This document shows positions 20,358 to 20,445 of a stretch of DNA of 25,098 nt, piece by piece. Position numbers and translations under genes: made by a program. A model generated the notes under the pieces. That model had not been told where the DNA came from and did not search any database. It saw only the letters and a list, made by a program, of their open reading frames with translations. Source of the DNA: a virus; the UHGV virus genome UHGV-1632131; one strand, given 5' to 3'. Within the stretch, counting starts at the first letter, position 1. Every line of letters starts with the position of its first letter.

Positions 20358-20445
20358 ACACAACAGGTAAGGGTATTTTGCGACGTCGGAGATCGCCGTG
20401 CTTGGCAGAGGGTTCGAATCCCTACGAAGTACCCTTACCGTTGTG
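20358..20445 (+). ncRNA. long-stem hairpin element E2 with an internal T-arm-like motif
   Basis: Starts immediately after the CCA of tRNA-Thr. CACAAC-[bulged A]-GGTAAGGGTA (20359-20375) pairs with TACCCTTACC-GTTGTG (20430-20445); the loop contains GGGTTCGAATCCC (20410-20422), a canonical T-stem-loop. Confidence 0.45.

Follow-up and report, generated by a model that had tools for sequence, protein, structure and literature searches.

E2, a long hairpin RNA encoded on the + strand at positions 20359 to 20445 of the virus genome UHGV-1632131 (a stretch of 25,098 nucleotides [nt] that is called the window here), is a member of a hairpin family of Enterobacterales phages, the constant stem of which most likely is a substrate of the host RNase III. 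We consider this the best reading of E2 because copies of the same family lie in the late leader of phage lambda and at an RNase III-dependent RNA end in the Qin prophage of Escherichia coli. Under this reading, E2 would adjoin the CCA end of a phage tRNA because the hairpin acts as punctuation of a long transcript and aids the formation of the tRNA 3' end.

The E2 hairpin and its tRNA-like tip

The window is a P1/D6-like phage-plasmid, with 90 to 94% identity to phage P1, phage D6, and many P1-like phage-plasmids around E2, while E2 itself is 95 to 100% identical in 503 of 505 matching plasmid records. No convincing open reading frame (ORF) was found between 18930 and 21920, which instead holds three tRNAs and a series of long hairpins. 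E2 follows tRNA-Thr(UGU) (20282-20357; called by ARAGORN and by Rfam RF00005 with 75.5 bits), whose CCA is encoded at 20355-20357. A single unpaired base, A20358, separates this CCA from the pair C20359-G20445 that closes the hairpin, in line with an initial annotation of this DNA that had placed E2 against the tRNA. The predicted fold has an energy of -40.8 kcal/mol, and none of 200 shuffled sequences was as stable (z = -5.6). The 21 stem pairs with one bulge, the covariation, and the excess of G.U pairs (see below) fit an RNA duplex in E2 that spans some two helical turns and lies on the transcribed strand. The same annotation had pointed out a perfect T-stem-loop, and GGGTTCGAATCCC is indeed an exact match at 20410-20422; a search of the window for this sequence, allowing up to two mismatches, found the T-arm of tRNA-Asn as the sole other match. 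The parts of E2 are as follows.

E2, whole hairpin: 20359-20445, + strand; stem of about 21 bp with bulged A20365 and a conserved tip; z = -5.6; covariation in 12 of the 21 stem pairs
E2, 5' arm, CACAAC-A-GGUAAGGGUAUUUUG: 20359-20380, + strand; family scaffold, common to lambda, Qin, and more than 100 phage copies
E2, D-arm-like hairpin, CGA-CGUCGGAGA-UCG: 20381-20395, + strand; GG in the loop, 97% identity, pairs invariant
E2, mini hairpin, CCG-UGCU-UGG: 20396-20405, + strand; 3 bp at the place of the anticodon arm, variable in sequence with 71% identity
E2, T-arm, G.A, AGGG/UUCGAAU/CCCU: 20408-20424, + strand; exact motif, invariant in 19 variants
E2, 3' arm, CGAAGUACCCUUACC-GUUGUG: 20425-20445, + strand; contains a predicted RNase III cut, by homology to Qin

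A motif search with the E2 tip recovered 110 viral contigs, and the alignment of E2-type elements comprises 19 distinct variants. In their stems, 12 of the 21 pairs have changed on both sides, and 93% of the alignment cells are paired, compared with 30 to 55% when the partner is slid. Identity amounts to 97% in the D-like arm and the T-arm, with two variable columns in each (2 of 15 columns for the D-like arm), whereas it is 73% in the stem arms and 71% in the mini arm, where the third pair alternates between A-U and G-U. Since the tip is conserved to this extent on at least five different stem sequences (P1-type, lambda-type, and those of contigs L195, L199, and L130/L174), it is under purifying selection. 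In phages outside the P1 type, the E2-type tip stands after a terminator or a small hairpin with no adjoining tRNA, so that a neighboring tRNA does not characterize the tip.

One way to draw the tip is a cloverleaf of reduced size that keeps the normal order of a tRNA: a D-like arm (CGA/UCG) with a 9-nt loop bearing GG, a 3-bp stub (CCR-N4-YGG), three or four linker bases, and a T-arm with a G.A fifth pair, which in this model would be stacked on the long stem as the T-arm of a tRNA is stacked on the acceptor stem. Two variants lean toward the cloverleaf: in L218, the G.A pair that closes the T-stem has become G-C through an A-to-C change, and in L104, a U-to-C change breaks a pair of the competing rod-like fold yet falls in the D-like loop.

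For membership among tRNAs, we asked for a cloverleaf in which the acceptor stem has 7 bp and the anticodon stem has 5 bp and a 7-nt loop, with a D arm, a T arm, and a score above 29 bits. Of the anticodon arm, E2 has only 3 bp and a 4-nt loop. ARAGORN called only the three real tRNAs and none on E2, and RF00005 had no match on 20358-20450 at E ≤ 10, even though only these 93 bases were searched, which agrees with the earlier view that E2 cannot be folded into a canonical cloverleaf. The initial annotation had proposed a comparison with the Rfam models for both tRNA and Y-RNA-like RNAs, and neither matched E2 at E ≤ 10. At the gathering score, Rfam returned the three tRNAs only; at E ≤ 10, the matches were to microRNA families, transfer-messenger RNA, mascRNA, and plastid families and represent noise or cover the T-arm only. 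The sole full-length Rfam alignment to the E2 tip was that of mascRNA/MEN-beta (RF01684), and it is insignificant (14.2 bits, E = 1, gathering score of 42.5). As is proposed for the E2 tip, mascRNA is excised from a longer transcript as a small RNA of tRNA shape, the anticodon arm of which is reduced; however, it is eukaryotic and released by RNase P and RNase Z instead of RNase III, so that the likeness is an analogy only.

The hairpin family and its proposed RNase III anchors

Beyond what the initial annotation had seen, the long stem is not special to E2 but common to many phage hairpins with unrelated tips. Within the window, repeat finding recovered the 5' arm (ACAACAGGTAAGGG-like) four times and the 3' arm (CCTTACCGTTGTG) three times, and the scaffold pattern occurred twice against 0.00 expected. 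These arm repeats define four family copies, E1, E2, E4, and E5, with E3 and E0 as looser relatives (coordinates are given in the last section). An arm-based pattern search extended the family to at least 120 viral contigs. Its shared architecture consists of 6 to 7 bp, a 1-nt 5' bulge, 2 bp, a 1x1 mismatch or pair, and at least 7 bp, with the ends CAYAAC...GUUGUG; in-register alignment to this scaffold holds for E2, E4, E5, the copies of lambda and Qin, and over 100 viral ones. Both arms are nearly constant, the 5' arm as CAC AAC, bulged A, GG, U, AAGrGCAyUG and the 3' arm as CAgUGCUCUU, U or A, CC, GUUGUG. Most copies keep a U.U mismatch, at the place of which E2 has a U-A pair. The family stems contain 315 G.U pairs versus 88 A.C pairs, an excess that points to selection on the + strand RNA.

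In contrast to these arms, the tips are hypervariable: 83 distinct interiors of 29 to 70 nt fall into at least 39 unrelated clusters. Most tips are not tRNA-like, and the strict T-loop motif is found in 3 of the 39 clusters, compared with 0.07 expected. One and the same interior occurs in lambda, a P1-like plasmid, and Klebsiella phages. As for the surroundings of the copies, all 62 copies with a tRNA within 1.5 kilobases lie on the strand of that tRNA, 26 of them within 10 nt of it, and some family copies run into the 5' end of a tRNA. Among 145 distinct flank contexts, 29 place the element after a terminator-like T-run, 26 after a tRNA 3' end, and 46 after one of three small hairpins, while the small hairpin GTGAATGCGCAGGCTGATGCGC lies 3' of the element in 48. 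Family hairpins are often bracketed by such small hairpins, GCUCCACGAAACGGAGC (or CCUCGGAAGAGACGAGG) just 5' and GCGCAGRCUGAUGCGC just 3', and the conserved unit is therefore larger than the long hairpin.

The family is spread over lambdoid, P1-like, and other enterobacterial phages. In bacteria, sampled with one genome per species, true scaffold copies were found only in Enterobacterales, in genera including Serratia, Klebsiella, Pectobacterium, Pantoea, Rahnella, Kluyvera, Citrobacter, Erwinia, and Enterobacter. The underlying scan of bacterial genome contigs gave 122 matches, 76 of which are chance matches without an inner stem and about 20 of which are lambda DNA contamination. The latter carry the exact phage lambda sequence on short low-coverage contigs of unrelated assemblies (Pseudomonas, Psychrobacter, Oceanobacillus, Shewanella, a Segatella metagenome-assembled genome, and others; contigs L227, L228, L243, L246, L250, L264, L265, L272, L273, L281, L282, L291, and others), and contamination is almost certainly their source. 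As such, the family appears to be undescribed, being absent from Rfam 15 and from the descriptions returned by a full-text literature search.

Two members of the family suggest a link to RNase III. An E4-type copy was found in lambda lysogens and, in phage lambda itself, at 44786-44863 between Q and S, six bases past tR', the terminator of the 6S RNA. Its scaffold sequence is nearly identical to that of E2, its tip is that of E4, and it likewise belongs to a long transcript, in this case an antiterminated one; it differs from E2 in that it follows a terminator and not a tRNA, and in that its tip is not tRNA-like. Lambda late RNA is reported to contain RNase III processing sites (Daniels et al. 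1988).

The second anchor is the copy in E. coli K-12's Qin prophage (L220, 19173-19258), which reads CCAUAAC-G-CG-A-AAGCGCA...UGCGCUU-C-CG-GUUGUGG. A scan of the prophage with the consensus pattern gave no match, and the copy was recognized by eye through its compensated stem. It has the architecture of the family (7 bp, bulge, 2 bp, 1x1 mismatch, and at least 7 bp) and the same outer stem as E2 (CCAUAAC...GUUGUGG in Qin), while the inner stem carries compensatory changes, from GG/CC to CG/CG and from AAGAGCA/UGCUCUU to AAGCGCA/UGCGCUU. A 190-nt DicF species requires RNase III and has its 5' end between positions 813 and 814 (PMC10448788; Faubladier 1990). A count of 190 nt backward, starting at the annotated 3' end of DicF, leads to L220 19246 in the 3' arm of the Qin copy, between gugcg and CUUCCGGUUGUGG; by this coordinate transfer, which is our own, an RNase III site defined by experiment falls on one member of the family. 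The published work on Qin DicF does not describe the hairpin as a member of a family (PMC10448788; Faubladier et al. 1990). The Qin dicBF site thus combines the hairpin architecture with an RNase III-dependent 5' end in the 3' arm, in a polycistronic phage early transcript beside small RNAs. Unlike E2, it has no adjoining tRNA, and its tip is unrelated to that of E2 and not tRNA-like.

Transferred to E2, these observations suggest the following course of events. The region would be transcribed as one long + strand RNA together with the tRNAs, and RNase III would make a staggered double cut in the E2 stem, between 20373 and 20374 and between 20433 and 20434, as predicted from the Qin 813/814 mapping by homology and from the 2-nt stagger rule of RNase III. 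The corresponding predicted cuts are 44801|44802 and 44850|44851 in lambda and, for the Qin copy, MG1655 1649244|1649245 (L220 19245|19246). The upstream product would be tRNA-Thr with a trailer of about 16 nt, to be trimmed to the CCA by host 3' exonucleases, and the downstream RNA would be separated by the cut. The tip would be released as an RNA of about 60 nt, with exactly 7 bp of stem under the T-arm and a CC overhang; in this model, it would probably be a small tRNA-shaped RNA bound by a factor that reads the tRNA elbow.

By analogy, E2 would work most like the RNase III punctuation hairpins of phages and their hosts. Related hairpins at the early RNase III sites of T7 punctuate one long transcript. 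In the host, Regnier and Grunberg-Manago reportedly described in 1989 an RNase III site adjoining the tRNA metY on its downstream side that releases this tRNA; the metY-nusA-infB site would thus share with E2 a hairpin by a tRNA in a polycistronic RNA, the cleavage of which frees the tRNA. Neither the metY nor the T7 sites are related to E2 in sequence, and they have no conserved, functional-looking tip. In these terms, E2 would be a new, tRNA-tipped form of a known type of element, the RNase III processing hairpin. The Qin DicF precursor site and, as a candidate placement, the lambda late RNA sites would be brought together in one large uncatalogued hairpin family, and even if only this ordinary part is true, the annotation of hundreds of phage and plasmid genomes gains from it.

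Several points weigh against the RNase III reading or against the proposed form of its product. Cleavage of E2 and of the P1-like copies is predicted by homology, and the Qin mapping itself takes 190 and 53 nt, as published, for exact lengths and the annotated 3' end for that of both species. For lambda, the tR' hairpin (about 20 bp) could itself be the published RNase III site; a global fold of the late leader did not single out the family hairpin next to tR'. Moreover, RNase III needs little sequence specificity, so that it does not alone explain the strong conservation of the stem, to which horizontal transfer, arm recombination, or another stem-binding factor may contribute. As for the tip, ViennaRNA gives -35.8 kcal/mol for the cloverleaf versus -40.8 kcal/mol for a rod formed by pairing UCGGA to UUCGA of the T-loop, and RNAalifold also prefers the rod. 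In silico, the isolated 60-nt product favors a non-cloverleaf fold as well (-16.8 versus -8.0 kcal/mol for the cloverleaf). Covariation is silent on the matter because all tip pairs are invariant.

Alternative readings of E2

Instead of the stem, the tip could be the point of E2, which would then be a stable tRNA-mimic small RNA (a decoy, a sponge, or an adaptor for a protein of the host or of a defense system that reads the tRNA elbow or the acceptor/T-helix) with the stem as a mere scaffold for its expression and processing. We regard this as a tentative possibility, less probable than not. It would account for a D-like arm and a T-arm that hardly vary although the stem backgrounds number at least five, and for the excess of strict T-loop motifs among the tip clusters, and it fits both the predicted cut, which leaves exactly 7 bp below the T-arm, and the Tad2-like anti-defense gene that lies downstream on the same strand. 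However, having no anticodon loop, the tip cannot serve as a decoy for anticodon nucleases, the fold of minimum energy is predicted to be other than the cloverleaf, and most tips of the family are not tRNA-like. This reading also overlaps with RNase III processing and does not exclude it. A broader version, which we consider doubtful, holds that one RNase III-cut scaffold is the phages' general cassette for diverse small RNAs, comparable to the backbone of primary microRNAs, and that the cargo of E2 is a miniature tRNA mimic. Constant stems with dozens of unrelated tips, some of them conserved and tRNA-like, are suggestive of such a common processing scaffold delivering diverse small RNAs. The excised RNA (20374-20433) would have a 7-bp acceptor-like stem on the T-arm and a 2-nt 3' overhang (CC in P1-type copies), so that tRNA enzymes could recognize, modify, or even CCA-extend it, and it could serve as a decoy against tRNA-directed host defenses. 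Were the scaffold such a general delivery cassette, the importance would be high, and the hypervariable cargoes would reflect an arms race or host-specific targeting.

Two further readings deny the element any RNA function of its own or reduce it to a relic. That E2 is a miniature inverted-repeat mobile element, or a recombination linker for cassette exchange that acts at the DNA level, is improbable in our view. Highly conserved arms around unrelated interiors, the occurrence of one interior in lambda, a P1-like plasmid, and Klebsiella phages, and the E4 arms, which are common to P1 and the window although the interiors differ, are what such an element would produce, and yet the excess of G.U over A.C pairs indicates selection on one RNA strand, the stem changes are compensatory, and the copies are always oriented with tRNAs and operons (62 of 62 for those near tRNAs). 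No transposase was seen, and no target duplications were noted in the flanks. The interiors form 39 unrelated clusters, where a miniature inverted-repeat transposable element would have a conserved interior and copies in both orientations, and recombination between arms can coexist with an RNA function. It is very unlikely that E2 is the decaying third tRNA of the array after loss of its anticodon arm, even though D-like arm, stub, and T-arm follow the order of a tRNA and the T-arm motifs of tRNA-Asn, tRNA-Thr, and E2 (at 20255, 20333, and 20411) are spaced by exactly 78 nt, which may be a coincidence or a trace of a tRNA-sized unit. The initial annotation had kept a degenerate tRNA pseudogene as an alternative, but the pattern of conservation runs counter to decay: D-like arm and T-arm are retained where the stem arms and the mini arm have diverged, the stems with compensation, and a decaying pseudogene is not supported on this ground. 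In addition, non-P1 phages carry this module away from any adjoining tRNA, the other tips of the family to which the stem belongs bear no relation to tRNA, and none of about 170 scaffold copies is an intermediate in which the anticodon arm is complete.

That E2 is a Y RNA of the YrlA type, tethering a Ro60/Rsr protein, has next to no probability. In YrlA, the stem of the 5' and 3' ends, which binds Ro60, extends the anticodon stem, the acceptor stem ends in a closed loop, and the elements stand in the permuted order T, acceptor, D (bioRxiv 10.1101/312249). E2 shares with it the gross picture of a long stem and a module with D-like and T-like arms; this part of the Y-RNA-like architecture suggested by the initial annotation is real and conserved. 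The YrlA type itself fails: E2 runs in normal order from the D-like arm over the mini anticodon-like arm to the T-arm, with the long stem at the acceptor position, and RF02553 had no match on E2 at E ≤ 10 even with 93 bases searched. The sole match of RF02553 in the region, at 20247-20307, lies on two real tRNAs and reaches 19.5 bits versus a gathering score of 69. Whereas YrlA is encoded next to rsr, a Pfam scan limited to the window's ten largest ORFs, and thus without its smaller ORFs or the remainder of the replicon, found no TROVE/Ro60 domain, consistent with the earlier remark that no Ro60/Rsr-like gene is visible there. The usual E. coli hosts are not known to carry rsr either. We therefore rejected a YrlA identity on model score, topology, and gene context, and the caution that the likeness is structural only was justified. 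Integron attC sites, CRISPR-repeat mimics, retrons, and type III antitoxin repeats were rejected as well, as their core motifs do not fit and the spacing of the hairpins is irregular (434 to 716 nt).

Other elements of the RNA-rich region

The remaining tRNAs and hairpins of the region are the following.

tRNA-Asn(GUU): 20205-20279, + strand; opens the pair of tRNA genes upstream of E2; called by ARAGORN and Rfam
tRNA-Thr(UGU): 20282-20357, + strand; encoded CCA, E2 after one unpaired A
tRNA-Met/Ile2(CAU): 21319-21394, + strand; upstream of E5; ARAGORN and Rfam
E0: 19329-19414, + strand; looser relative, CAACAUUAAGGAGG / CCUCCUUAAUGUUG, perfect stem with no bulge; z = -5.5
E1: 19925-20008, + strand; family hairpin without bulge and with a different tip; z = -7.9
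E3: 20582-20681, + strand; related, diverged scaffold CUACAAC-C-GUUGAGAAC..., tip with the GGGGUCAUAUCCC module; z = -7.7
E4: 20861-20936, + strand; canonical family hairpin, tip that of the phage lambda late-leader hairpin
Small hairpins flanking E4: 20843-20859 and 20943-20958
E5: 21577-21685, + strand; canonical scaffold with a 70-nt tip, 3' of tRNA-Met/Ile2(CAU)

The hairpin in E3 that the initial annotation had related to E2 is present (GGGGTCATATCCC), at 20611-20623 and thus one base from the position first given, and it is part of a recurrent module, GTAACGGGKTCATATCCCAATYTAC, which is also the tip of P1's own copy of E4. In E4 (window, 20861-20936; P1, L001 2648-2733), both arms are common to P1 and the window, while the interiors are unrelated, that of the window being phage lambda's and that of P1 being the GGGTTCATATCCC module found also in E3; the tip cassette has been swapped exactly within the arms. 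Of the GGG-N-ATATCCC hairpins likewise put beside E2, GGGGATATCCCC exists, again shifted by one base (19465-19476), and the ATAT palindromes near 19465 and 20061 have no shown relation to E2.

In P1, the annotated ORFs plp and upl (L001 2118-2687; window, 20328-20705, - strand) cover tRNA-Thr, E2, and E3 in antisense orientation. Here, an in-frame stop interrupts the frame of plp; both annotations are therefore probably spurious, and a coding explanation for the E2 region was dropped for the same reason. Among the ten largest ORFs of the window, Pfam identified DarA, DdrB (ddrB-ParB), a 2280-amino-acid SNF2/methylase protein resembling DarB, VRR-NUC, and a Tad2-like domain. The last of these (Thoeris anti-defense 2; E = 6.9e-11) lies in a 191-amino-acid ORF at 21924-22499 (+ strand) just 3' of the RNA-rich leader, which would place an anti-defense gene just downstream of the tRNAs and hairpins and on the same strand.

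At the other end of the leader, an operator-like direct repeat, AAATKAAWRTGTTAGAAAT, at 18936-18954 and 19099-19117 flanks the best promoter-like site (CTAACA-17-TATAAT, 19094-19122), which is likely the repressor-controlled start of the RNA-rich transcript. Farther downstream, a perfect 17-bp hairpin (19621-19699) followed by an intrinsic terminator (19719-19744) makes the segment 19621-19744 (+ strand) look like a separate small-RNA unit; near the homologous place, the P1 annotation has a "dicF-like region," and the Rfam model for DicF gave no match. At 21064-21095 (+ strand), about 32 nt match the 5' part of a tRNA-Ser(UGA) that is intact in phage D6 (L002 3001-3087) and truncated in the window; an ATG at 21078 within this remnant opens a small hydrophobic ORF, which presumably is TciB-like. 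Lastly, a small hairpin with an AGGCA loop occurs in the window at 19479-19493 and 21790-21804, in L220 at about 19565, and in L002 at about 3300, with stems that compensate one another (the window has GGGGG/CCCCC and GGUGG/CCACC, whereas D6 and the Qin dicB leader have CCUGG/CCAGG), and constitutes another recurrent RNA module located 5' of small ORFs.
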